DNA of 10,508 nucleotides from Candidatus Thorarchaeota archaeon. GTDB taxonomy: Archaea > Asgardarchaeota > Thorarchaeia > Thorarchaeales > Thorarchaeaceae. The notes beneath the pieces were generated by a model that did not search any database, had not been told where the DNA came from, and saw only the letters and a program-made list of their open reading frames with translations. The position numbers and the translations under genes were made by a program. Below, in pieces: positions 1 to 10,508 of the stretch (positions are counted from its first letter, which is position 1; every line of letters begins with the position of its first letter). The stretch covers positions 1-10,508 of the forward strand of contig JBHLRQ010000110.1 of assembly GCA_048882385.1 (NCBI GenBank), read 5' to 3'.

Positions 1-876
1 ATGTCAAAGAATGGTGAACCATCTGCTTACACATGTTGGACAGCCCTCACACTACTCCCAAATCTAGGCATTGGTACTGAGATTGATGTAACAGCTAATG
101 CTCAGTTTGTGGCGGGCTTACAGCAGATTAATGGAGGGTTCCTAGGCAAGCCATCGAACACTATTCCAACATTGGTTAGAACATACTACGCTCTCGACAT
201 GCTTAGAATAGCAGGCAGGTTGGAGCTCATTGATTTGGCTTCTGCTCAGAGCTTTGTACTGGGTTGCTATAATGACGATGGGGGCTTCGGCAATACTTTG
301 CACGGAGAGTCGGACTTCAACTACGCACCTGCAGGAATCCTTCTTTTGGATATTCTTGGTCTGCAGGACGAACTAAATATCAGCTGGACCACTGATTATC
401 TCTTGCAGTTTTGGGACAATGATTCAGGTTGTGATATACAAGCAGACCTTCTCTTCACTCAACGGATAGCCTGGTCATTGTGGCTCTTGGACAATGAGAA
501 CTCAATCGATGTAGCAAAGATGCTCCAGTGGGTTTTCAATCTTCAGAGACACGAGCATGGAGAGTTTGTTGGCTATCCTGGAGCGGACATCGAAAATGAA
601 CGTCTAGTCTTTGCAAATTATGCAACTCACATTCTTGCTATGTATAACGGTAGTAGTTTCTTGGACTATGATTTCTTGGTGGAGGACCCTCCAGTATGGA
701 CCATCCCACAATGGTGGATTGACTATATCAATTCAGAATGGGGTACAATCTCAAATCATGATGATGATTTCCATTCCTTGTATGCTGCTACCCTGTTTGT
801 TGCAGCAGTACTCATCCCACTATGCATCGTCACATCTGTAATGTGCTTTATTCAGAGATATAGAGAAAAAGGATAG
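1..876 (+). CDS. Prenyltransferase/squalene oxidase (PFTB) repeat protein with C-terminal membrane anchor; probably 5'-truncated by the window edge
   Basis: Repeated motifs QQINGGF, YNDDGGFG, QRHEHGEF followed by helices such as TYYALDML and ANYATHIL, typical of the geranylgeranyltransferase-beta alpha/alpha toroid repeat. Hydrophobic C-terminal helix followed by QRYREKG. Confidence 0.75.
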   Translation: MSKNGEPSAYTCWTALTLLPNLGIGTEIDVTANAQFVAGLQQINGGFLGKPSNTIPTLVRTYYALDMLRIAGRLELIDLASAQSFVLGCYNDDGGFGNTLHGESDFNYAPAGILLLDILGLQDELNISWTTDYLLQFWDNDSGCDIQADLLFTQRIAWSLWLLDNENSIDVAKMLQWVFNLQRHEHGEFVGYPGADIENERLVFANYATHILAMYNGSSFLDYDFLVEDPPVWTIPQWWIDYINSEWGTISNHDDDFHSLYAATLFVAAVLIPLCIVTSVMCFIQRYREKG

Positions 877-920
877 GAGAACCTTTGCACGAATTGAAGC
901 TTAGAAGCCAGTCCACAATT

Positions 921-929
921 CTTTTAACC
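921..929 (+). promoter_or_regulatory. Putative archaeal TATA box (TTTTAA, 922-927) of the tRNA-Ala 5' fragment
   Basis: About 32-37 nt upstream of the tRNA G1 equivalent (959), inside an 18-nt block identical to the upstream region of the intact tRNA. Confidence 0.6.
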
Positions 930-958
930 GTTCCAGCAAAGACAGCGAACCAGCACAT

Positions 959-979
959 GGGCCGGTAGATCAGCCCGGT
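959..979 (+). pseudogene. tRNA-Ala 5' fragment (exon 1 only)
   Basis: GGGCCGGTAGATCAGCCCGGT is identical to exon 1 of the intact gene. Similarity stops where intron 1 begins. A T5 run follows at 999-1003. Confidence 0.85.
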
Positions 980-991
980 AGTGCAATAATT

Positions 992-1510
992 TCAAATCTT
1001 TTTCCGAAGAATTCTTTTTGTTTCAGGTGCTGCTTTTCTCTTCTTCGCTCTATGTTTACTCTTAGTTTTCGGACCACCTTTCACCTTGCCAACAGTTCCA
1101 ACCTTGATAACTTCTGCAGTTGGTATTGTTTTCTCTGGAATCTGTGCTGGCCGTTTCTTAGTTATTGAAGCTTTTTTCATTTGACGCTTGGTTTCTGATT
1201 CAAATGATGGATATTTTGATTGTTTGTCTTTTGTGTCGATGCGTAACTGTTTTTCGCACCAAAATCGTAGATTAACTAATGTTCCAAGGTATAGAGATCG
1301 TGTGCTTTTGACAGCTTCACAAATCAGTCCTCTGTCATCATAGTATACGGGATCATTGCCCCCAATTTCATTTCTCGAAACATTGCACAACAATATCATT
1401 ACTTTTGCTAATTCTTTGCAAATGTTTTCGCATTCTTTTTGTGTTTTCGATTCAAAAAAGTCAACAGTAACTAATCGTGGGTTCATTGACCTACTAACCT
1501 CCTGAACCAA
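992..1510 (-). CDS. Hypothetical protein with Lys/Arg-rich low-complexity C-terminal half
   Basis: 172-aa ORF overlapping the end of the upstream 187-aa ORF, suggesting coupling. No family recognised. Confidence 0.6.
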   Translation of the reverse strand: MVQEVSRSMNPRLVTVDFFESKTQKECENICKELAKVMILLCNVSRNEIGGNDPVYYDDRGLICEAVKSTRSLYLGTLVNLRFWCEKQLRIDTKDKQSKYPSFESETKRQMKKASITKKRPAQIPEKTIPTAEVIKVGTVGKVKGGPKTKSKHRAKKRKAAPETKRILRKKI

Positions 1511-2057
1511 TCCAACCTATCAATACACCAACAGCAACAAACATCGAGAGAACTACTGCAAAAACGCCTATCAGTGCGAAGACCTGCGCTAATGTCAATG
1601 CTCGTGCTTTCTTTGAATTTACATCTCCCAATGAAAAGAGTGTTTCAACAAGTTTCTCAATCATTGCTGTTTCAATATCGGATACATTTGAGTCAAGGTA
1701 CATCAGAACAGCACTCTGCTCGTGAGGAAGATATGAGGGTATATACGCAGTTACACTTTGAGTACAAAGTGAAAATGTTGCAGAAAGAGCGAACAATACA
1801 ATTCCTCCAGCATAAAACCAAAGAAACGGAATCAGGCTTACAAGAGGCATACTCTCTCTTGCCATTGTTTCACCCAATGCGTATAAACCAACAAGAATTG
1901 CAGTTATTGAACTTGTAAAAGAAAATACTCTATTTGCTTTCTCCTCAATCTTATTCCATCTATCATGCTCAGCTGAAAGCTCTCGTTGATATTCCTGAAG
2001 CAGAAATTTTCTCAGCTTGGCCTTAGGGTCAGTCTGACTTCCCAATAGTGTCCCCAC
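1494..2057 (-). CDS. Three-helix membrane protein, possibly Pycsar effector (PycTM/DUF5706)-like
   Basis: N-terminal helix ending IEEKA, two hydrophobic helices, a soluble loop, then NSKKARAL and a third hydrophobic helix. This layout resembles PycTM-type effectors. The family call is by eye only. Confidence 0.5.
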   Translation of the reverse strand: MGTLLGSQTDPKAKLRKFLLQEYQRELSAEHDRWNKIEEKANRVFSFTSSITAILVGLYALGETMARESMPLVSLIPFLWFYAGGIVLFALSATFSLCTQSVTAYIPSYLPHEQSAVLMYLDSNVSDIETAMIEKLVETLFSLGDVNSKKARALTLAQVFALIGVFAVVLSMFVAVGVLIGWIGSGG

Positions 2058-2080
2058 GCAAGAAAGATTTAGAGTTCACT

Positions 2081-2097
2081 TGTATAAACGTATTTCG
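2081..2097 (-). promoter_or_regulatory. Putative BRE/TATA promoter for the 187-aa ORF (likely leaderless)
   Basis: Minus strand reads CGAAATACG-TTTATACA, with TTTATA about 26-31 nt upstream of the GTG at 2057. Confidence 0.45.
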
Positions 2098-2127
2098 AAA
2101 GAAACCTATTAATTTTCAAGAGACTTT

Positions 2128-2138
2128 AAAGAAAATAG
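2128..2138 (-). terminator. T-rich terminator of tRNA-Ala
   Basis: Minus strand CTATTTTCTTT directly after the encoded CCA. Confidence 0.55.
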
Positions 2139-2306
2139 TGGTGGACCGGGCGAGATTCGAATTCGCGCTCCGCGTGGTAATCACAGCAGAGTCTCGCGAC
2201 CTCCTCCATATTGATTTTCACGCGAAATGCGAGAAAAGTGCCAAGGAGGCGATCTAATTCCCAATGCCTTCGAAGTGAAGACAAAACCGGGCTGATCTAC
2301 CGGCCC
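2139..2306 (-). tRNA. tRNA-Ala(GGC) with three introns (D-loop ~2285-2256, canonical 37/38 at 2238-2209, T-arm 53/54 at 2192-2162)
   Basis: Removing three inserts gives GGGCCGG TA GATC AGCCCGGTA GATC G CCTCC TTGGCAT GGAGG AGGTC GCGAG TTCGAAT CTCGC CCGGTCC A CCA, a complete cloverleaf with G3:U70 (Ala identity), A73, encoded CCA and anticodon GGC at 2242-2240. Intron 2 forms a strict BHB. The intron 1 3' boundary is uncertain by about 2 nt. Confidence 0.95.
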
Positions 2307-2353
2307 ACGTGCTGGTTCGGAGTTCCTGATAGAATGGTTAAAAGAATTGTGGA
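2286..2353 (-). repeat. Inverted repeat arm B: promoter (TTTTAA at 2343-2338), leader and exon 1 of the intact tRNA-Ala
   Basis: 59/68 gapless identity to 912-979 in the opposite orientation. Confidence 0.95.
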
Positions 2354-2380
2354 GTGTTATCTAATAGTTGGGTTAAAAGA

Positions 2381-3178
2381 TTACTTTTTGAAAATAGGTT
2401 CACTATCTCGTTTGTACTTCATTTTACCTGAAGACCCGTAGTGGTATAATAACCAATCAAGTTGGGGGAGTTGAAAACGCGTTACAAAAGTAATAACATT
2501 GGAAAGAAAGTGTGATAGTCCGAGTCCTTCGGATTTAAACGAATCATCAGGCTCAATCTCAGTTAGATGGAGTTCGGTTTCCCAATGGTCACAAAGGCGA
2601 ACAAGGAATTGACTGCCGCCTTCGAAACCATAAACCCAACCAAGTGTTACTTCTTCATCATGAACATAAAGGAGATCAAATAATGTCTTTTGAGGATACT
2701 TTTCCTGCCGTATTTTGCTTTTTATGGCGGACTTAAGTGAGCCAGGACTTTGCCATCCCCCTTTGAAAGCAAAGATAATGGCAGTAGGTTGTCCAAGATA
2801 GTAATGTTCTCCCCAAGATGCTGGTATTACTAACGGTCGTATTAATTCCAGATTTGTGCGAGTATTATAGATATTCTTGAACGCTTCTCCAATCTTACCC
2901 TGCAAAGTTGTTTTGACCTCTATCGTAGCAACTGTTGAGTCAATAGGAATTAGACGGTCAGTAACTTCATCTTCAACTAGATTCTCAAAAACCACACTTG
3001 GTTGAGTAAGTTGATCATAGATTATCACATCAGTCTGGTTTGATTGAATACCTCTTCTATCAACTAGAAATCCTTCTACTACCCCATATCTCGACGGTAG
3101 GTACTTGAGTAGTAGTTTCCTCACTATTTTCTCGTTTGTTTCTCCTAATGCTTGATTCTGTTGGAATTCCTTATTCAT
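2381..3178 (-). CDS. DUF6602 / NucC-like PD-(D/E)XK endonuclease-fold protein
   Basis: GETNEKIVRKLLLKYLPSRYGV..GFLVD..G.QSNQTDVIIYD ... IPIDSTVATIEVK matches the G..E...L..YLP.RY / S.Q.D.IIYD / E.K pattern of NucC and DUF6602 proteins. Confidence 0.8.
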   Translation of the reverse strand: MNKEFQQNQALGETNEKIVRKLLLKYLPSRYGVVEGFLVDRRGIQSNQTDVIIYDQLTQPSVVFENLVEDEVTDRLIPIDSTVATIEVKTTLQGKIGEAFKNIYNTRTNLELIRPLVIPASWGEHYYLGQPTAIIFAFKGGWQSPGSLKSAIKSKIRQEKYPQKTLFDLLYVHDEEVTLGWVYGFEGGSQFLVRLCDHWETELHLTEIEPDDSFKSEGLGLSHFLSNVITFVTRFQLPQLDWLLYHYGSSGKMKYKRDSEPIFKK

Positions 3179-3339
3179 CTCTCTTAGGTTTTGTAACTAT
3201 TTTTCTCGTAGTATTCTGTTCTTTTCCAATGCAAATTCGCCTTGCCTATATTGAGTTCAATCAAGATGCAGAGAAAGTCCCCATTTCACGCATGTTTGAG
3301 TTGGCCAGTTGAATAGAAGCATATGTCTTTTGCTAATCC

Positions 3340-3361
3340 TCGAATCTCGCCCAGCCCACTA
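3340..3361 (+). repeat. tRNA-Ala 3'-end copy 1 (degenerate)
   Basis: TCGAATCTCGCCCAGCCCACTA, 19/22 to exon 4. Confidence 0.85.
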
Positions 3362-3466
3362 TCTTAACTTCTGCTGTTATATCCGTGTGTTTGTAGTACA
3401 GTTCTTTTCATATATTGAAAGATATATTCTAGGTCAGAGGAAATTGTAGTGAGAGGGAGTGCCCTA

Positions 3467-3934
3467 ATGAGCGATGAGCCTAAAAAGAGTAGTAATGTGA
3501 AAGGAAGATTCAAGAAGAGATCCATTGCCCTTGTGATTTTAATTTCGGCTGTGCTATTGATGTCACCGGTTGTATATTTTTGGTCGCTATCAGAATCAGG
3601 TACAGCGCAGACTTTTGGAATTCATTTCACAGGTCCCAATCAAACTTGGTTTGATGGGCAGATACGCATCGGATTTGAAGACGGACAGCATGAGGATCTT
3701 ACGCCTTGGCCAGTATTTCCACTTACCGAAGAAGGTTCACAAGTTGGTTGGGAATCATGGGTGATTGTAAATCGAACATTTGATAGTCCTGAAACGTGTT
3801 CTTTTGAGTACGATTGTTCAGAATTGGATATAACGGTTGGACCATTGACATTCAGGTCGAATCAACCTCAGATTCTATATCAAGATGAGTCTAGCCGAGT
3901 TATCGAAACATGGATAGTCATTCTACAAACATAA
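3467..3934 (+). CDS. Hypothetical membrane-anchored/exported protein
   Basis: Basic N-terminus, one hydrophobic helix (SIALVILISAVLLMSPVVYFW), then a beta-rich domain. ATG 3467 preferred over GTG 3449 because GAGGGAGTG precedes it. Confidence 0.7.
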   Translation: MSDEPKKSSNVKGRFKKRSIALVILISAVLLMSPVVYFWSLSESGTAQTFGIHFTGPNQTWFDGQIRIGFEDGQHEDLTPWPVFPLTEEGSQVGWESWVIVNRTFDSPETCSFEYDCSELDITVGPLTFRSNQPQILYQDESSRVIETWIVILQT

Positions 3935-3940
3935 CGATTC

Positions 3941-3963
3941 TTCGAATCTCGCCCGGTCCACCA
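3941..3963 (+). repeat. tRNA-Ala 3'-end copy 2 (exact exon 4)
   Basis: TTCGAATCTCGCCCGGTCCACCA, 23/23, followed by CTCCTTTTCT. Confidence 0.97.
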
Positions 3964-4204
3964 CTCCTTTTCTAATTCTTGATGCTAACCAATCATGTGC
4001 AATCGCCTCCTTTCTGACATCATCATTCGTTCGGCTTCTCGAGTCTATTAGCGATAAGTAGAAACTCCGAAGACCTTATGTCGAAGCTCCGCCCACAGTC
4101 TGGTTGACAGTGTTGTCATATCTGTGAAACTGAGGGCCAAGTAAGCCTACGCTAAACAGCTCGAAAGAGATATTTCGACAGATCAAGGAATTTGATGGGG
4201 TTAG

Positions 4205-4951
4205 TTGAACATGGATTCATGGAGAGATATCGGAAAAGCCTTGGAGGAAATTCTTCGACCCTCTACATATCCATTAGCTGTCAAGCTAGTTAAGGATGAA
4301 TCAGAATTTCCCGAGAAAACTCGAAGACCCGAAAGCAAAATCGCAATATGTCAAGCTCTAAGTCTATCTCGACGATTTGGCTGGACAATGGGTATCACAG
4401 AGGAAGATAGTGGTTGTCCTGGTGCTAGTTTCGCTTATGGCTGGAAAGAGCTTTTTGATAAATCCACACTTGCACTTTTCTTCCTTGAAGCAGGTTATGC
4501 TGCAGATGATGAAGGAGCAAACACCATCCTTGAGAATGTGGACCATCTAGAAAAGGGAAGATACTGTGCTCTAGTAATATCACCATTGACAAGAACAAAG
4601 ATTGTACCGGACGTAATTCTTGTGTATGGGAATCCTGCTCAGATAATGCGTCTCCTGCAAGGGGCTATGAACAAAGATGGAAAGAGATTGAAAGCTGAAT
4701 TAGCAGGAATCATGGCCTCTTGTACTAGTGGAGTTCTTCGCACTTTTAATACTCAAGACTATCAAATAGTAATACCAGGAAATGGAGACCGAGTATTTGC
4801 AGGTGCAAATGATGATGAAATGCTCTTTGCAATACCAGCCGCAAAAGCTGAGGAGATAGTAAATGGGATGAAACAACAGCGTTTCGCAAAATACCCAATT
4901 CCAATCTCGATGAAAATGCCGCCTCCTTTTCCAGGACTTGAAGAGACTTGA
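4205..4951 (+). CDS. DUF169 family protein
   Basis: Motifs YPLAVKL, CQALSLSRRFG, CPGA, PDVILVYGNPAQIMRL, ASC, PGNGDR..A...DDEMLFAIP. Start may be ATG 4211. Confidence 0.85.
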   Translation: MNMDSWRDIGKALEEILRPSTYPLAVKLVKDESEFPEKTRRPESKIAICQALSLSRRFGWTMGITEEDSGCPGASFAYGWKELFDKSTLALFFLEAGYAADDEGANTILENVDHLEKGRYCALVISPLTRTKIVPDVILVYGNPAQIMRLLQGAMNKDGKRLKAELAGIMASCTSGVLRTFNTQDYQIVIPGNGDRVFAGANDDEMLFAIPAAKAEEIVNGMKQQRFAKYPIPISMKMPPPFPGLEET

Positions 4952-4967
4952 CTCGCCCGGTCCACCA
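4952..4967 (+). repeat. tRNA-Ala 3'-end copy 3 (short)
   Basis: CTCGCCCGGTCCACCA, 16/16, directly abutting the TGA stop at 4949-4951 and followed by CTCCTTCT. Confidence 0.93.
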
Positions 4968-5017
4968 CTCCTTCTATATTCTAGGAAAACTTAACTCAAG
5001 AGTCATTTCTAGATTCG

Positions 5018-5827
5018 ATGTGGTTGGATTTGTCAAAGATCGAAGGTATCAATCCAGATGAAAGAGTAGTCTACGCATTGAGGTGTCGATTGCAGAAATT
5101 CGCGGGAGACCTTGTAGTAACTGACAAGGGCATCGTTTTCATCAAATATGAGGGGACCTTCATAACTCGTGGAAAAAGACTGCATGATTTCCCCTTCGAA
5201 ACACTGGGCGGAATTCGAATTGAGAAACAGGGATTGTTTGGGACAAACATTGCCATTGATACTAGGGACTTAGCCTGGGGAAATCGCACACATCGTTTTT
5301 CATGTTCGGATTCTGACGCCAAGAGATTCATAGCTGTTGTTGAAAATCAGAAACAGCTTCTAAAAACTCCTGAAGAAGTCGAAACCATAATTCTGAGTCT
5401 TGTTAAACCTAAAGGTGAAGCAGATTTGATGGAGGTTTCAAGAAATCTACAGATTCGGGATCTTATCGCTAGATTACAAGGATTGACCCATGACAGGCTT
5501 CCTGACATTTGGGCATTCAATGCAGTCAGGGATATTGTTGTGAAGTTAATTGCAAAAGGCTCACTAGACGGAATTATCACAGATGACAACAAGTTTGTTT
5601 CCAACGCTCTGCTGGCCAGAAAATCTGTACAATATCAAGTTGTTCTAGATTTCGCTTCAATCTATTCCCAGCTTGAAAACAAGGGAATAGTACTACAGAC
5701 TTTAGAATGTCCATCATGTAATGGAAAGCTAGAGTATCCGAAGGATGGTGACACAACTACATGTCAATTCTGTGGTGCAACTGTACACGCAGTGGATGTA
5801 TTCAAGAAATTCAAAGAGTTGCTGTAA
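5018..5827 (+). CDS. Hypothetical protein: PH-like N-terminal domain, helical/winged-helix-like middle, C-terminal zinc ribbon
   Basis: GDLVVTDKGIVF is typical of prokaryotic PH-like domains. LIAKGSLDGII resembles a winged-helix/PCI-like end. CPSC...CQFC forms a Zn ribbon. Confidence 0.7.
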   Translation: MWLDLSKIEGINPDERVVYALRCRLQKFAGDLVVTDKGIVFIKYEGTFITRGKRLHDFPFETLGGIRIEKQGLFGTNIAIDTRDLAWGNRTHRFSCSDSDAKRFIAVVENQKQLLKTPEEVETIILSLVKPKGEADLMEVSRNLQIRDLIARLQGLTHDRLPDIWAFNAVRDIVVKLIAKGSLDGIITDDNKFVSNALLARKSVQYQVVLDFASIYSQLENKGIVLQTLECPSCNGKLEYPKDGDTTTCQFCGATVHAVDVFKKFKELL

Positions 5828-5834
5828 TAGATTA

Positions 5835-5903
5835 GGAGGAGATCGCGAAACTCTGCTTGCATTTCGCGACAGAGCGCGAATTCGAATCTCGCCCGGTCCA
5901 CCA
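5835..5903 (+). pseudogene. tRNA-Ala 3'-half fragment (copy 4): exon 3, a variant 53/54 intron and exon 4
   Basis: GGAGGAGATCGCGAA (13/15 to exon 3), a 31-nt intron at 5850-5880, and exact exon 4 at 5881-5903, followed by TCTTCTTCTTTCTTT. Confidence 0.93.
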
Positions 5904-6006
5904 TCTTCTTCTTTCTTTGGCATTCCTTCATTCTTCAATCGATGATCGACTGTCTATTGAGCGGTCTAGTCCACGACTTCGTCTGACACCAGAATTGAAG
6001 ATCGGT

Positions 6007-6567
6007 CTAGGTCCTTGCGGCATCAAGGAAGTATATGGTTACGACTATGCCATTCACTGCGGCGAGCAAGCTATTCCAGATGTTCCAGCCACCACCAATC
6101 AAAGCCACCGACCAGTTCGCAACGCCAAAAGCTAAGAACACCAAGGCAGCAACAATGGAAAACGGACTGAATTCCTCGCGAAGCAACCATGCAGAAATCC
6201 CTGCAGCGATCCAGCCCACGCTATAGAATATCCAGCCAACCAAAATAGAGGTTTGCAACCAATCAGGTATAATAGCAGGCAGGCCAATCAAGTAATACGG
6301 TAGGGGAGTTGTGATATCCCGCACGATGATGCATATAGCACTGACTAGCGGAATGACGTTCCCGCTCTTTCGCCATAGTCCAAAGAACCCTATACTGATT
6401 AGGATCATAGCCAGGATAAGTATCTGATAGTGTTGTACTGGACCCCAGGGGAAGAATTCCTCGTGGGTTTCAAAGGTCCAGCCAAGAAAACTTGGGCTGT
6501 ATATCAGTGCGATGAGGAAACCGCCAATAGCACCGAGTACGAACGAAGCTTTTATTCCATTATTCAA
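6007..6567 (-). CDS. Hypothetical multi-pass membrane protein (about 6 helices)
   Basis: 186 aa, mostly hydrophobic segments. TTG start preceded by AGGAGTGGAG. Confidence 0.75.
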   Translation of the reverse strand: MNNGIKASFVLGAIGGFLIALIYSPSFLGWTFETHEEFFPWGPVQHYQILILAMILISIGFFGLWRKSGNVIPLVSAICIIVRDITTPLPYYLIGLPAIIPDWLQTSILVGWIFYSVGWIAAGISAWLLREEFSPFSIVAALVFLAFGVANWSVALIGGGWNIWNSLLAAVNGIVVTIYFLDAART

Positions 6568-6600
6568 CGATTCTCTCCACTCCTACTAGTGTTGAGAGGC

Positions 6601-6787
6601 GCATCAGTCTTTTTTTCACATTCTAATCCTCCCATCCTTTGTCCACACAACAAAGAACTGAACAGATTGTATATTCAGTGTTCATTATCTCTGTTTCTTT
6701 AGCTGGCATATACAAAGAAACCTACGGAGTTGTATTCTATAAGAAAGAACTTCACTACACAATGATAGAATCTCGCCCATTCCACAA
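6601..6787 (+). repeat. Long direct repeat copy A (partner 7563-7757), ending in tRNA 3'-end copy 5
   Basis: First 120 nt are 108/120 identical to 7563-7682. The remainder aligns with an 8-nt net indel. Confidence 0.95.
6768..6787 (+). repeat. tRNA-Ala 3'-end copy 5 (degenerate)
   Basis: GAATCTCGCCCATTCCACAA, 17/20. Confidence 0.85.
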
Positions 6788-6825
6788 CGTTTTCACTACT
6801 CTCAATCGAGTCCTTTTTGTTCTGT

Positions 6826-7581
6826 TCATCTTCGCCTGAGGAAAACGATTGTTAACGCAATGACAACTACAGTAACGACACTCCCAATGATGATCAGTTC
6901 CCAAGACAGGGGTGTTGAGGGCATTTTCACAGTGTCATCAACAACTAGGTTGTCTATCGCAGCACCAGTAGCTCTGTAGCAGTAGAACTCGAGATAGGTA
7001 GAACTTGTAACAGCATTACTGGTGAAGTTTGCTTCGAAAGTTCCATTGACGAAGACATAGAAGTTGCCATCACTTGTCCTGCTCACATCAATGTGGTGCC
7101 ATCCTTGTATAGGATCTATATTGATGGTTGATTCAACATTCGAAATTAGTCCGTTCATTGTCCAGACAATGAAAGACGGAGCGGGATGTGCCCAAACTCC
7201 AACACCTACAAAGTAATTGGCGAACGTTGGGATTTGTCTGGAGCCGTTAGACATGAAATAGACATACATAGCATACCCAGAAAGTTCATTGTCTGGTACA
7301 AACATATCGAAACTCCAAGTCCCGACATTCACAGTACTGCTGTGCCTTGCAAAGTTCATATCATCATCAAGTACCTTCAGCGTACCTTCTGCATCCGTGA
7401 AGTTGCCTTCTATCGTAACGAGTGAATATTCATCTTCGTATGCGAATATTGTCCAATCACCTAGTCCACCTTCGAAGTCGTCACTCCAAATCACAGCTGC
7501 ATTTGTAGTTGTTGTGCATACTGAGAGCAAGAGAACAAACATCGTAACTCCAGCAATTAGGTGCATCAGTCTTTTTTTCAC
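6826..7581 (-). CDS. Exported concanavalin A-like/LamG-like beta-sandwich protein with C-terminal membrane anchor
   Basis: Signal peptide MKKRLMHLIAGVTMFVLLLSVC from GTG 7581, which has GGGAGG upstream (preferred over 7608). WSDDFE, GTWSFD, GWHHIDVSR..DGNFYVFVNG and IDNLVV motifs. Terminal hydrophobic helix followed by RRR. Confidence 0.75.
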   Translation of the reverse strand: MKKRLMHLIAGVTMFVLLLSVCTTTTNAAVIWSDDFEGGLGDWTIFAYEDEYSLVTIEGNFTDAEGTLKVLDDDMNFARHSSTVNVGTWSFDMFVPDNELSGYAMYVYFMSNGSRQIPTFANYFVGVGVWAHPAPSFIVWTMNGLISNVESTINIDPIQGWHHIDVSRTSDGNFYVFVNGTFEANFTSNAVTSSTYLEFYCYRATGAAIDNLVVDDTVKMPSTPLSWELIIIGSVVTVVVIALTIVFLRRR

Positions 7582-7757
7582 ATATGTGGCCTCCCATCCT
7601 TTGTCCACACAACAAAGAATTGAACAGACTATATATTAGGCGTTCATTATCTCTGTTTCTTTAGCTGGCATATACAAAGAAACTCATGGGAACATATTCC
7701 ATAAGAGAGAAAGACCTGAGGGCACTACACAACGATAGAATCACGCCCGGTCCACCA
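7563..7757 (+). repeat. Long direct repeat copy B, ending in tRNA 3'-end copy 6
   Basis: Aligns to 6601-6787. Covers the first codons, RBS and upstream region of the 6826-7581 gene. Confidence 0.95.
7738..7757 (+). repeat. tRNA-Ala 3'-end copy 6
   Basis: GAATCACGCCCGGTCCACCA, 19/20, followed by TTTCTCCTT. Confidence 0.93.
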
Positions 7758-7857
7758 TTTCTCCTTGTGTCAGCACATCAAGCCTTTATATTAGAATGAA
7801 ATAAAGCTGGAAGACCTAAGTTTCAAATTTGAAAATCGAGAGTTGCGAGTGAGTTCA

Positions 7858-8982
7858 ATGGTAGAGAAAGAAACATGGGAGAACACGGTGTTCAAAAAAT
7901 TAGAATTACCAAATGGAGTGATTGTTTCCAACCGAATCATGCGAGCCGCCACTTGGATGGGACAAGCAGAAAAAGAGGGAAGATGTGGGGATACGATTAT
8001 AGAAACATATGGCAAAATCAGAGCTGGTGTCGTGGTGACCGGCTTTCAATATGTGATGCATGAGGGGCAGTCAATTAAACGAATGATTTCAAATTCAAAG
8101 CCTGCAGATGTTGAAAGTCTAAAAAGACTTGCAGGAATAATTCATTCATCAGGTGGTTTAGCCGCAGCTCAATTGGTCCATTGTGGGTGTAAGAGTTTGC
8201 CAAAATATTCTGGCAATGATATATTCGGACCTAGTGATATGGAAGTCCCTGGCCCTAAAGGAGAGGTTGTTCAGGTGAAAGCCATGACGGTGGACCATGT
8301 TGAAGAGGTCACTCAGGCTTATGCTAATGCAGCGAAACGTGCGGAAAAGGCAGGGTTTGATTTGATTGAGCTTCACGGAGCGCACCATTATGGTCTTTGG
8401 CAATTCTTTGATCCATCATATAATCATCGCCCAGAGAATGATCCTTATACAGGAAAATCAATCGAAGGTCGTAGCAAAGCGATGGTGGACTCTGTACGAG
8501 CTATCAAGGACACAGTTGATATTCCAGTCCAAGTAAAGGTGGATTCAAGCTCAGATACCGTCAGAACCGAAGAAGTAGGCGAGCTAGTGAAGAAACTTGC
8601 TGAGGCAGGCGCATATTGTGTGATATTCAGTGGCCCAAACCCAAGTCGGAAACCAAGAGATATGCAAGATGCATATTTTCTGGATGACGCATTGGTTATC
8701 CGTTCCATTGCACACGATAGTCGTCTCTTGTTCGGGTTGGTGGGCGGTATCCGGTCTCCAGAAACTGCCATCAAGTTACTGACTGGAGATGGAAATCCGG
8801 CTGCTGCGTTCGATGTCATTCAACTTAGCCGTCCATTAATCAGTGAACCAGCACTCTTTCATCGTTGGACTGAAGAAGCAAAAACAGGGACCCAAGAACC
8901 TGCTCGATGTATATCCTGTAATCGTTGTTTAGCAGCTGGACTTAAGGGAGGAGTAAGATGCGTTCAGTTTGAAAGTGATTAG
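7858..8982 (+). CDS. NADH:flavin oxidoreductase, Old Yellow Enzyme family
   Basis: SNRIMRAAT, AQLVHCG, AGFDLIELHGAHHY, GGIRS, SRPLISEP and a C-terminal CISCNRC...C cysteine motif. Start is ATG 7858 or TTG 7843. Confidence 0.92.
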   Translation: MVEKETWENTVFKKLELPNGVIVSNRIMRAATWMGQAEKEGRCGDTIIETYGKIRAGVVVTGFQYVMHEGQSIKRMISNSKPADVESLKRLAGIIHSSGGLAAAQLVHCGCKSLPKYSGNDIFGPSDMEVPGPKGEVVQVKAMTVDHVEEVTQAYANAAKRAEKAGFDLIELHGAHHYGLWQFFDPSYNHRPENDPYTGKSIEGRSKAMVDSVRAIKDTVDIPVQVKVDSSSDTVRTEEVGELVKKLAEAGAYCVIFSGPNPSRKPRDMQDAYFLDDALVIRSIAHDSRLLFGLVGGIRSPETAIKLLTGDGNPAAAFDVIQLSRPLISEPALFHRWTEEAKTGTQEPARCISCNRCLAAGLKGGVRCVQFESD

Positions 8983-10430
8983 GAATAACTCCAAAAGAGG
9001 GTAATCGAATCACACCCAGTCAACCACTCTTCTTTTTGATTCTGAGTAGTCATTATCTCCATTTTGATTGATTGATTAGAATTTTCTATTATTTGACTAC
9101 TGGCTCCCAAGCACCTTGCCGATAGAGCCTGATGTCCAAGAGCAGTGTATTCCACAACCCCACCTACCATTGTCATTAGCACTTCTATGTCAGCAAGAGT
9201 GTTTTCTGGAACTGTCAGCGGGTTGTCTGAGAGCATCACAAGGTCTGCAAATTTGCCCACCTTGACGCTCCCCTTTACATCCTCTTGAAACGTCCCATAG
9301 GCCGCATCGATAGTCAGTAGTCGAAGAGCTTGTTCCACGCTGATAGTCTGATTCAACATCCAATCTGTAGGCGTTAGTCCAAGCCTACCGACTCTGGTGA
9401 CAGCACTAGAGATAACATACATTGCTGACCTATCAGTTCCTATAAGCCAAGGATAGTCGGTACTTCCCATTGTTGGGATTCCTGCTTCAAGAATATCTCT
9501 CCATCTACCTACGAGGTGTGAGTAATTCTGTAGATATGGCCATGATTCCGCTTCCTTCCAATCTGAGTTGAACCATGTGAGCTGGATTGAGGCGGTAATT
9601 TCTAGATCGGCCAGTTTCTGTATCCGGTCATCATTGAGTAGAACGAGATGCTCGATTCGGTGTCTATGCTGTTGGTTCGATTCCCCGTCCAAGGCCGACT
9701 CCAGAGCGTTTAGAACAATGTCTGTGGCATTGTCAACTACACTGTGAATAGATATCTGAAATCCGTCATCATGGGCCTGTTGTACCAGTGCGTCTAGTTC
9801 AAGCTGGTCGAAGTAGTGAAGCCAATCGGTGTACCAGCTGTCCATGAAAATCTTAACCCCACCTATCCTCAACTTCGAACTATATTCCTGCCCGGGTTGA
9901 TAGGCCTGGTACCAATCGCCGAACCTCTCGAACTGCCAACTCAAGGGGAGATAGGCATTGACACGAATGCGAAGGTTGTCCTGTTGATTCAAAGTAATGA
10001 GACCATCCAGGCGTTCTTGATTCACAAAGAGTTCAGAAATACTGGTCCATCCAGCACTAAGTACTGAATCAATCACTTCATCTGATGTTGATTGGTTCAC
10101 GTAGCTCCGATCACCAATATGATGTGAATGAGCATCATTGAAACCGGGTAGAAGTGTCCTTCCTCCAAGGTCTATGAGTTGAGTATTTGGTCCTGCCAAC
10201 GCAAGAACATCATTTTCATCGCCCACAGCGACGAAATACTCACCTTGGATGGCTACTGCTTCGACTTGTGAAGGGGACTCTTCCATGGTAAGAATTATAC
10301 CATTGTGGAAAATAATGTCGGGGGCAGTTTCGGATGTTTTCCAGAATCCTTGAAAACCTAGATACAAGAGAGAAGCTAGTAATATCGTGAGTACGAGAGA
10401 TGTAGCTAGAAACAGTCCACGTCGTGTCAT
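8979..10430 (-). CDS. Metal-dependent amidohydrolase (Amidohydro_3/YtcJ-like) with N-terminal signal/anchor
   Basis: IDLGGRTLLPGFNDAHSH, GGVKIFMD, QISIH, RHRIEH, GSTD, GSVKVGKFADLVML motifs. Confidence 0.92.
   Translation of the reverse strand: MTRRGLFLATSLVLTILLASLLYLGFQGFWKTSETAPDIIFHNGIILTMEESPSQVEAVAIQGEYFVAVGDENDVLALAGPNTQLIDLGGRTLLPGFNDAHSHHIGDRSYVNQSTSDEVIDSVLSAGWTSISELFVNQERLDGLITLNQQDNLRIRVNAYLPLSWQFERFGDWYQAYQPGQEYSSKLRIGGVKIFMDSWYTDWLHYFDQLELDALVQQAHDDGFQISIHSVVDNATDIVLNALESALDGESNQQHRHRIEHLVLLNDDRIQKLADLEITASIQLTWFNSDWKEAESWPYLQNYSHLVGRWRDILEAGIPTMGSTDYPWLIGTDRSAMYVISSAVTRVGRLGLTPTDWMLNQTISVEQALRLLTIDAAYGTFQEDVKGSVKVGKFADLVMLSDNPLTVPENTLADIEVLMTMVGGVVEYTALGHQALSARCLGASSQIIENSNQSIKMEIMTTQNQKEEWLTGCDSITLFWSYS
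9005..9026 (+). repeat. tRNA-Ala 3'-end copy 7 (degenerate, inside the amidohydrolase tail)
   Basis: TCGAATCACACCCAGTCAACCA, 18/22, followed by CTCTTCTTTTT. It begins 22 nt after the OYE stop, the position expected from the array pattern. Confidence 0.75.
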
Positions 10431-10494
10431 TAGATTAACTCCTTTCCCTAACCAAGCAGAATTCTAATGTTTGAAGTTAGATAATAATCATCCG

Positions 10495-10508
10495 TTCGAA
10501 TCTCGCCC
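10495..10508 (+). repeat. tRNA-Ala 3'-end copy 8 (cut by window end)
   Basis: TTCGAATCTCGCCC, 14/14. The preceding bases (ATCCG) cannot form the T-stem, so it is not part of a whole tRNA. Confidence 0.85.

Follow-up and report, generated by a model that had tools for sequence, protein, structure and literature searches.

The stretch of DNA analysed here (the window, 10,508 nt) is the entire contig C110 of the metagenome-assembled genome G000. It carries the live gene for tRNA-Ala(GGC) beside a long array of truncated copies of the 3' end of the same tRNA (3' stubs), with protein-coding genes lying between them. The live tRNA gene is turned round relative to its own array and to the layout of the locus elsewhere. 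The flipped gene is most likely a leftover of past DNA shuffling and not a working switch. The account favoured here, to which about an even chance is given, is that the heads of two alleles were joined at a locus of foreign-gene insertion and that the live gene, together with two strain-specific open reading frames (ORFs), was turned by a past inversion. G000 comprises 3.7 Mb in 256 contigs, is 95%-complete and has a G+C content of 43%; close relatives among public genomes carry Thorarchaeota or Promethearchaeota archaeon titles. Genomes are labelled G, tRNA loci L, contigs of G000 C and sequencing runs X; o172, o187 and o186 are ORFs of 172, 187 and 186 amino acids, and PFTB denotes a prenyltransferase gene.

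The live tRNA gene and its antiparallel array

The live tRNA-Ala(GGC) gene occupies 2139..2306 on the minus strand and is read in four exons (2306-2287, 2256-2238, 2207-2193 and 2161-2139, the CCA included). These are separated by intron 1 (2286-2257) in the D loop, with a boundary that is ambiguous by 1 nt, intron 2 (2237-2208) at or beside position 37/38 and intron 3 (2192-2162) at position 53/54. When the three introns are removed in silico, the exons give a perfect cloverleaf, which ARAGORN calls as a 77-nt tRNA-Ala(GGC) with a G3:U70 pair. In the raw window, both ARAGORN and Rfam gave no tRNA call; the gene is missed because of its three introns and is not absent. A canonical cloverleaf after removal of the inserts and intron positions common to relatives are the marks of a multi-intron archaeal tRNA gene, and both are found here under predicted splicing; multi-intron tRNAs are described for other Asgard lineages in the available part of a published account (PMC11291895). 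No other GGC isoacceptor was found among the 39 tRNAs called in the 256 contigs, nor was a second GGC copy or first-exon match found anywhere in the assembly; the other alanine tRNAs of G000 are TGC (on C2) and CGC (on C20). Annotators should be warned that neither ARAGORN nor Rfam detects the single tRNA-Ala(GGC) gene of G000.

Eight 3' stubs were located in the window, all on the plus strand: stub 1 (3340..3361, nt ~56-77 of the tRNA, 3 mismatches), stub 2 (3941..3963, nt 55-77), stub 3 (4952..4967, nt 62-77), stub 4 (5826..5903), the decayed stub 5 (6768..6787), stub 6 (7738..7757), stub 7 (9009..9026, 4 mismatches), which lies within the 3' end of a minus-strand amidohydrolase ORF, and stub 8 (10494..10508), which is cut by the contig end. 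Stub 4 is long and includes the 3' strand of the anticodon stem, a homologue of intron 3, the T arm and the acceptor, with the stub start at 5875; it was recognized from an inverted match of 89 nt and 79% between 2128-2216 and 5826-5914. The live tRNA is antiparallel to every one of these stubs, and the observation that the intact gene points opposite to all eight fragments, made in an earlier note on this DNA, was thus confirmed. The array extends over 3340-10508, with a stub spacing of 0.6-1.5 kb and one ORF per interval, on either strand. Four more plus-strand stubs are present on contig C98 (790-5185), which ends in a conserved block termed U2 (methyltransferase, tRNA-Phe), and the array amounts to at least the eight stubs in the window and the four on C98.

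At all 13 other loci with this tRNA and 3' stubs, the tRNA heads a co-oriented array, and these arrays persist without the protection against excision that, in the earlier note, opposite orientation was thought possibly to give; the loci are those of G013, G030, G008, G005, G016, G004 and G014 and of six metagenome contigs. Hence, it was concluded that it is G000 that carries the rearrangement. In G030, the layout runs tRNA, cargo, inverted 5' stub and array, which is the layout predicted for the state before an inversion. The inverted stub of G030 (L014 11326-11396, minus strand) is a decayed 5' half with its promoter and lies inside the array. In G008, a 3' stub and a cassette for a bacterial-PH-domain protein (bPH) are inverted upstream of the tRNA (L015 2181-3066, plus strand), and on the metagenome contig L046 the same is seen for an o186 homologue (5999-6547, plus strand).

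The flanks of the locus were compared as well. The tRNA follows a core block termed U1 (FKBP, proteasome subunit, FttA, SepF, helicase, PUA protein, LSm and eL37) and points to U2 in eight of the 11 relatives with informative flanks, which represent five genera (G034, G035, G070, G030, G004, G014, G002 and G013). In the other three (G032, G033 and G009), it stands beside U2 and faces away from that block. Both flanks of G032 are on a single contig, where, just as in the window, a DUF6602 gene is found immediately upstream of the tRNA. From these comparisons it appears that the tRNA has turned more than once in this family, the orientation varying even within the genus. No rooted tree underlies the orientation data, and "ancestral" can mean the majority reading only. 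No inverted repeats that would explain the turned tRNA were found in G032, G033 or G009, the sole matches being those between the heads of tRNA-Ala and tRNA-Phe in G009.

The two arms and the proposed inversion

Inverted arms were detected at 901-996 and 2269-2364 in a repeat search of the window (96 nt, 78%). Within them, a core at 912-979 matches the inverted 2285-2353 at 59 of 68 positions in an ungapped count, against maxima of 38-42 in 12 shuffles of the window; the binomial expectation of such a match over the whole window is ~4e-18. The identity falls into three blocks of 18 nt (promoter box region), 10 nt (leader) and 22 nt, the last being a perfect core that consists of tRNA nt 1-20 plus one base on either side and is the longest exact repeat of the arms. 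The 17 nt separating box and leader are largely unlike, and the nine mismatches cluster there. Each arm contains the promoter box, conserved in front of the tRNA in 14 of 15 aligned genes, as well as tRNA nt 1-20. The 68-bp inverted repeat with box, leader and first exon in each arm was therefore described correctly before, except that the left copy is 3 nt longer (nt 21-23) in the intron-less reading.

The right arm holds the promoter of the live gene (2307..2356, minus strand), which matches its counterpart in the three-intron gene of G013 at 49 of 50 positions. In the left arm, a tRNA promoter lies on the plus strand (912..958), with a box near 914-930 that is kept in relatives and a leader of ~10 nt. 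It is followed by a dead 5' stub (959..981, plus strand), which comprises nt 1-23 of tRNA-Ala(GGC) without a body and matches the spliced tRNA at 23 of 23 positions; the similarity of the left copy to every tRNA allele stops at 981. Over 71 nt, the left arm shares 94% identity with the head of the live intron-less gene of G005, nt 21-23 of the stub follow the intron-less reading, and the stub probably derives from an allele lacking intron 1. Since the closest relatives of the two arms differ (G013 and G005), two alleles seem to have been brought together, and the arms are best read as the heads of different alleles and not as a fresh duplication of one another. To speak of a "duplication" of promoter and first exon, as had been done, is misleading.

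The live gene itself has the appearance of a mosaic. Among 15 aligned genes, the D-loop intron is present in 14 and the 37/38 intron in nine; the 53/54 intron is confined to the window, G013 and G014. The closest relative differs from part to part (G013 for the promoter, L048/G016 for intron 1, a G009-like gene for intron 2 and G014 for intron 3), which suggests crossovers within the short exons.

Promoter-bearing 5' stubs are common in the genus (two each in G008 and G016, two to three in G011, one each in G005 and G010), and they end at varied positions of the tRNA (nt 21, 23, 25, 29-33 and 51). In 2002, Zhao and Williams reportedly described a bacterial integrative element that brings along the promoter and 5' part of the tRNA it targets, encodes an integrase and is flanked by direct repeats; an element of this type, in which incoming DNA replaces promoter and 5' end, would account for such stubs. 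The fragment in G005 (L016 9887-9937, minus strand) bears a promoter, extends to nt 51 and is followed by 7 masked N; it lies ~150 nt upstream of the intact intron-less tRNA as a direct repeat, with almost no cargo between. A further piece was found in G000 itself, on C132 (8800-8836, L049), where U1 ends with the eL37 stop and internal tRNA nt 19/21-32 begin 9-11 nt past this stop and are followed by unlike sequence and the contig end; this piece overlaps the 5' stub of the window by 3-5 nt. A reading in which the window stub (nt 1-23) and the C132 stub (nt 19-32) are the products of one site-specific event with a shared core of 5 nt was dropped as unproven. It is weakened by G011, which shares the bases up to GG, so that the tRNA-derived part may be 12 nt, and by the two contigs being unjoined. 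An alignment of the reverse complement of exon 1 with a 3' stub, considered as a cryptic site, was unconvincing by eye. The exact left junction (28 nt) had no match in metagenome contigs, and the patterns of the 3' stubs and of promoter plus exon 1 had none in viral contigs, among which no free element was found.

In the favoured account, foreign genes would insert repeatedly next to tRNA-Ala(GGC), and incoming DNA would supply a new promoter and 5' end, leaving nt 1-23 behind as a dead stub. One crossover between the two heads, within their 22-nt perfect core, would then invert the live gene with o172 and o187 relative to the array. A layout like that of G030 would thereby become the present one with the tRNA unchanged, the agent being either homologous recombination or a recombinase acting in trans. 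On inversion of 980-2285 in silico, a complete pre-tRNA identical to the present one is rebuilt on the plus strand at 959, at the head of the array, as had been predicted; of the 50 bases upstream of it, 40 are the same. Inversions recur at the locus, as seen with the bPH cassette (G008), the o186 homologue (L046) and the tRNA between its flanks (G032, G033 and G009). The proposal of a past inversion made in the earlier note thus stands in so far as the tRNA is turned with respect to 13 of 13 loci and G030 presents the other state; the unit that was turned may have been 980-2285 or a larger block.

Several points weigh against this account. How an inverted 5' stub came to lie within the array is left unexplained by it, and in the hypothetical cassette before inversion (two ORFs, an inverted stub and DUF6602) a 3' stub would be missing between the parts. 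For the left stub, an intron-less origin has two informative bases and the promoter similarity as its basis, and the extra stub on C132 indicates that more than one event took place at the locus. The relatives' loci were picked by their similarity to tRNA-Ala(GGC) and are not independent of one another, which makes the locus counts descriptive. No match to the tyrosine (PF00589) or serine (PF00239) recombinases was found in the 95%-complete genome. Finally, the four genes in 982-3338 have the minus strand in common, and the pair of DUF6602 and tRNA recurs in G032 with the same orientation to U2, so that inversion or inverted insertion of the whole block fits equally well, with the arms incidental.

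Alternative explanations

In the whole-block explanation, which is regarded as rather unlikely, the minus-strand block 982-3338 (o172, o187, the live tRNA gene and DUF6602) was the unit, which either was inverted or entered reversed, and the 68-bp repeat would be a by-product and not the crossover site. If the block was inverted, the canonical starting layout would have been 5' stub, DUF6602, tRNA, o187, o172 and 3' stub 1. If it was inserted, a reversed module with its own tRNA would have displaced a resident intron-less gene, of which the left stub and perhaps 3' stub 1 would be the remains. Besides the common strand of its genes and the occurrence of the DUF6602-tRNA pair, facing away from U2, in another genus (G032), it is in favour of this explanation that the two ends of the block coincide exactly with a 5' stub and a 3' stub and that the hypothetical earlier layout fits the canonical two-sided architecture of G008 and G016. 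However, no inverted repeat or known site was found that links 981/982 with 3338/3339. The left stub is perfect (23/23), whereas 3' stub 1 has 3 mismatches in 18 scanned positions, which is odd for the remains of one broken gene, and nt 24-53 of a resident gene would need to have been lost too.

The earlier note had also raised the possibility of an invertible segment, 980-2285, that flips actively in the population and gives a working tRNA in both states. Both states would indeed yield the same pre-tRNA, analogous structures occur in both states in different genomes (the window and G030), and the orientation of the tRNA between conserved flanks differs even between members of one genus. Against this, only the assembled orientation is bridged by contigs, in two runs, and the arms are diverged alleles and not homogenized copies. 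Flipping would leave the pre-tRNA identical, and the enclosed ORFs o172 and o187 keep their own upstream region, so that no known expression would change. Programmed switches such as Hin, Fim and the shufflons have short inverted repeats that flank 1-2 kb. The window is like them in that inverted repeats flank a segment (59/68, 22-nt core); it differs in that no adjacent or genomic invertase was found, no second orientation was seen in the contigs and no orientation-dependent gene is present. An active switch is hence held to be improbable.

The evidence from sequencing runs consists of Logan contigs of four runs (X1, X2, X7 and X10), in which rare variants are dropped. One X1 contig, 3786 nt long, agrees with 619-4404 at every position at an even depth of 15.4, and in X2 contigs cover 619-2166 and 2141-4189. 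Since both junctions are bridged in two runs, the assembled orientation is real, and it appears to be fixed in the sampled populations. No strand-changing joint at 980 or 2286 was present among the joints listed for the four runs, contigs being insensitive to rare flips. In X7, no contig lies over 1054-2106, and one of 390 nt consists of 598-981 followed by 6 unaligned letters; the promoter is a variant one in an X1 contig that departs from the window at 982. These departures hint at strains with other DNA behind the stub and are taken as leads, not findings. Two joints in X2 (981>5875 and 2161>2287) were traced, from the letters between their sides, to intron-less tRNA-Ala(CGC) and tRNA-Ala(TGC) genes of other organisms and were set aside.

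The search for a recombinase bears on the same question. No member of a recombinase family was found among the 11 ORFs of the window, the 40 in the loci of six relatives, the nine of G030 or the 20 of C132 and C98. Matches to PF00589 occur in eight of 28 genomes of the genus, and none of these is one of the array holders G000, G004, G005, G008, G013, G014 and G016.

A function of the left stub, whether as a promoter that drives a short RNA antisense into o172 and o187 or as the 5' half of a split tRNA, is very improbable. Its promoter box and leader are as well kept as in live genes, and it points into the 3' end of o172. But the intact gene already serves the GGC anticodon, the 5' stubs of relatives end variably and face unrelated cargo, and no partner 3' half with a complementary leader was found, the 3' stubs being without nt 24-52. 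A split tRNA gene is likewise not indicated, as an intact gene is present and none of the stubs has nt 24-52 together with a leader that matches. Faulty assembly into a chimera where the first exon is repeated, conceivable for a metagenome bin of 256 contigs in which the window is a whole contig ending in a repeat, is hardly credible, given that the longest exact repeat is 22 nt and that independent Logan contigs span both junctions with 0 differences and even depth.

Known systems, cargo and neighbouring genes

Several parts of this picture are already known, namely the stubs produced by integration into tRNA genes, 5'-side stubs accompanied by a gain of introns, and inversions whose ends are tRNA sites. 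At the tRNA-Thr(GGU) locus of Caldiarchaeum subterraneum, the closest case described for such 5' stubs, a promoter-side 5' fragment lies 1.8 kb upstream of the live gene. In the available part of that account it is explained by a mobile element with an att site over the 5' part of the tRNA, followed by recombination that scatters fragments (Sugahara et al. 2012, PMC3293823). The window is similar in having a promoter-side 5' fragment, and the live Caldiarchaeum gene has, according to the same pages, an extra intron (24/25) near the fragment end. It differs from what is described there, a direct repeat with a recombinase in the insert, by its inverted fragment, its insert of 1.3 kb without a recombinase and its long 3'-stub array. 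A precedent for an inversion of this type is the integrase Int-pTN3 of Thermococcus, which inverts DNA between inverted tRNA att sites, two copies of the 5' part of a tRNA (tRNA-Leu 2-44), as far as the available text goes (Cossu et al. 2017, PMC5495485); a further likeness is that inversions ending in tRNA genes recur between close relatives. Those inversions are large, chromosomal and due to a known integrase, whereas the segment in the window has 1.3-2.4 kb and no PF00589 gene was found in the genome. When the window was compared with a simple att duplication, the copy of the 5' stub was found to be inverted and not direct, and the eight 3' stubs to be direct only to each other and not to the live gene.

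The nearest analogues of the array appear to be the tycheposon islands and the integrons, and the defining recombinases of both are missing here. In Prochlorococcus, flexible genes pile up by a tRNA, older integrations being pushed outward and partial tRNAs left behind (10.1101/2020.12.28.424599). From the accessible portion of that source, tycheposons measure several kb, carry niche and defence genes as cargo and have their own recombinase and replication modules. Unlike these, the units in the window are mostly single genes of 0.6-1.5 kb without a recombinase, the tRNA is flanked by stubs on either side and the host belongs to the Asgard archaea. Archaeal integrons are known (Ghaly et al. 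2022, PMC9668308). The likeness of the array to integrons lies in ordered, mostly single-gene, promoter-poor cassettes with a short repeated site, whose positions vary among relatives. The array differs from integrons in that no IntI, attI or attC was found (attC folding not being modelled), in that the site is the tRNA 3' end and in that cargo lies on either strand. In a search that covered papers without their supplements, no published account was found of Thorarchaeota with single-gene cassettes that lie between tRNA stubs and make up a two-sided array, and the available parts of two papers (PMC11529989 and PMC8813620) describe no such array.

A more far-reaching proposal, which is thought doubtful, is that tRNA-Ala(GGC) anchors an integron-like, two-sided platform, in which, in this genus, single genes would be captured and reshuffled at two tRNA sites by an unknown recombinase and the tRNA core would flip recurrently. 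The capture sites may be the boundary of D loop and intron 1 and the T loop, with the window as one flipped state and G030 as the other. The enzyme is taken to be one not yet known because neither tyrosine nor serine recombinases could be detected in the genomes rich in arrays. For most 3' stubs the first base falls between tRNA nt 53 and 62, within the T loop or next to it, and the first six bases of this loop are palindromic (window 2156-2161); a symmetric palindromic core could conceivably permit recombination in either orientation.

The flipped gene by itself is a scar and not a device, and the surrounding locus is the better lead. Dozens of single-gene cassettes have gathered to the left and right of one intron-rich tRNA gene of an Asgard genus with no recombinase in sight, among them nucleases, an Abi-like gene, methylases, acetyltransferases and redox enzymes. 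The locus also offers natural snapshots of how a tRNA gains, loses and exchanges introns and fragments by recombination with incoming DNA, a question that has been open since the discovery of split and multi-intron tRNAs.

At the left end of the window, PFTB (1..876, plus strand) is the 3' part, cut by the contig start, of a PFTB-like prenyltransferase with an alpha-alpha toroid (Pfam PF00432, E 6e-14). Among 27 other genomes of the genus, orthologues of more than 70% identity were found only in G008 and G011, a distribution that marks PFTB as an accessory gene; in both, the tRNA promoter comes next. The expectation that relatives would have the intact tRNA directly after PFTB did not hold in either: in G008 a 5' stub follows PFTB and the live tRNA comes 7.4 kb further on the same strand, and in G011 the contig ends in the promoter.

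Between the arms, both on the minus strand, lie o172 (992..1510, likely start near 1486) and o187 (1494..2057). For o172, which belongs to no family, no match was found in Pfam or PADLOC, in any of 40 other genomes or, in usable form, in the Atlas. The membrane protein o187 likewise has no Pfam match and is absent from the 40 other genomes; its Atlas comparison gave feature scores of 0.94-0.95 and TM values of 0.75-0.82 to clusters in which 11-13% of the members carry PF18967, and a PycTM-like protein (Pycsar effector domain) is suggested by this structural comparison as a lead only. The DUF6602 gene (2381..3178, minus strand) shares its strand with the live tRNA, lies a short way upstream of it and encodes a PD-(D/E)xK or NucC-like nuclease (Pfam PF20247, E 5e-22; in PADLOC, PD_DExK 2e-23 and NucC 1e-14). 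A homologue of 47% identity stands at the same place by the tRNA in G032 (L025 8243-8578, minus strand), so that the pair is found in two genera; the gene may move along with the tRNA head, or its role may be defence.

The intervals of the array contain a 161-aa ORF, DUF169, bPH, o186, a lectin-fold protein, an Old-Yellow-Enzyme-type oxidoreductase and the amidohydrolase. In G013 and G009 the amidohydrolase stands directly against the tRNA, as does the oxidoreductase in G014, and single arrays of G005, G013 and G014 mix cassettes of C110 and C98. To judge from these comparisons, cassettes have been shuffled between relatives and occupy other array positions there, at times in the opposite orientation. 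The amidohydrolase ORF of the window ends inside a 3' stub (8979-9026), and its homologues in G013 (L013 6674-6694) and G009 (L033 1653-1673) end convergently inside the 3' end of the live tRNA; the cassette boundary thus falls within coding sequence. A direct repeat of 153 nt and 85% (6597-6749 and 7559-7711) lies on the upstream non-coding side of the neighbouring minus-strand o186 and lectin-fold cassettes. The two genes are unrelated, and the 3' stubs after them are mutually closest (88% over 33 nt).

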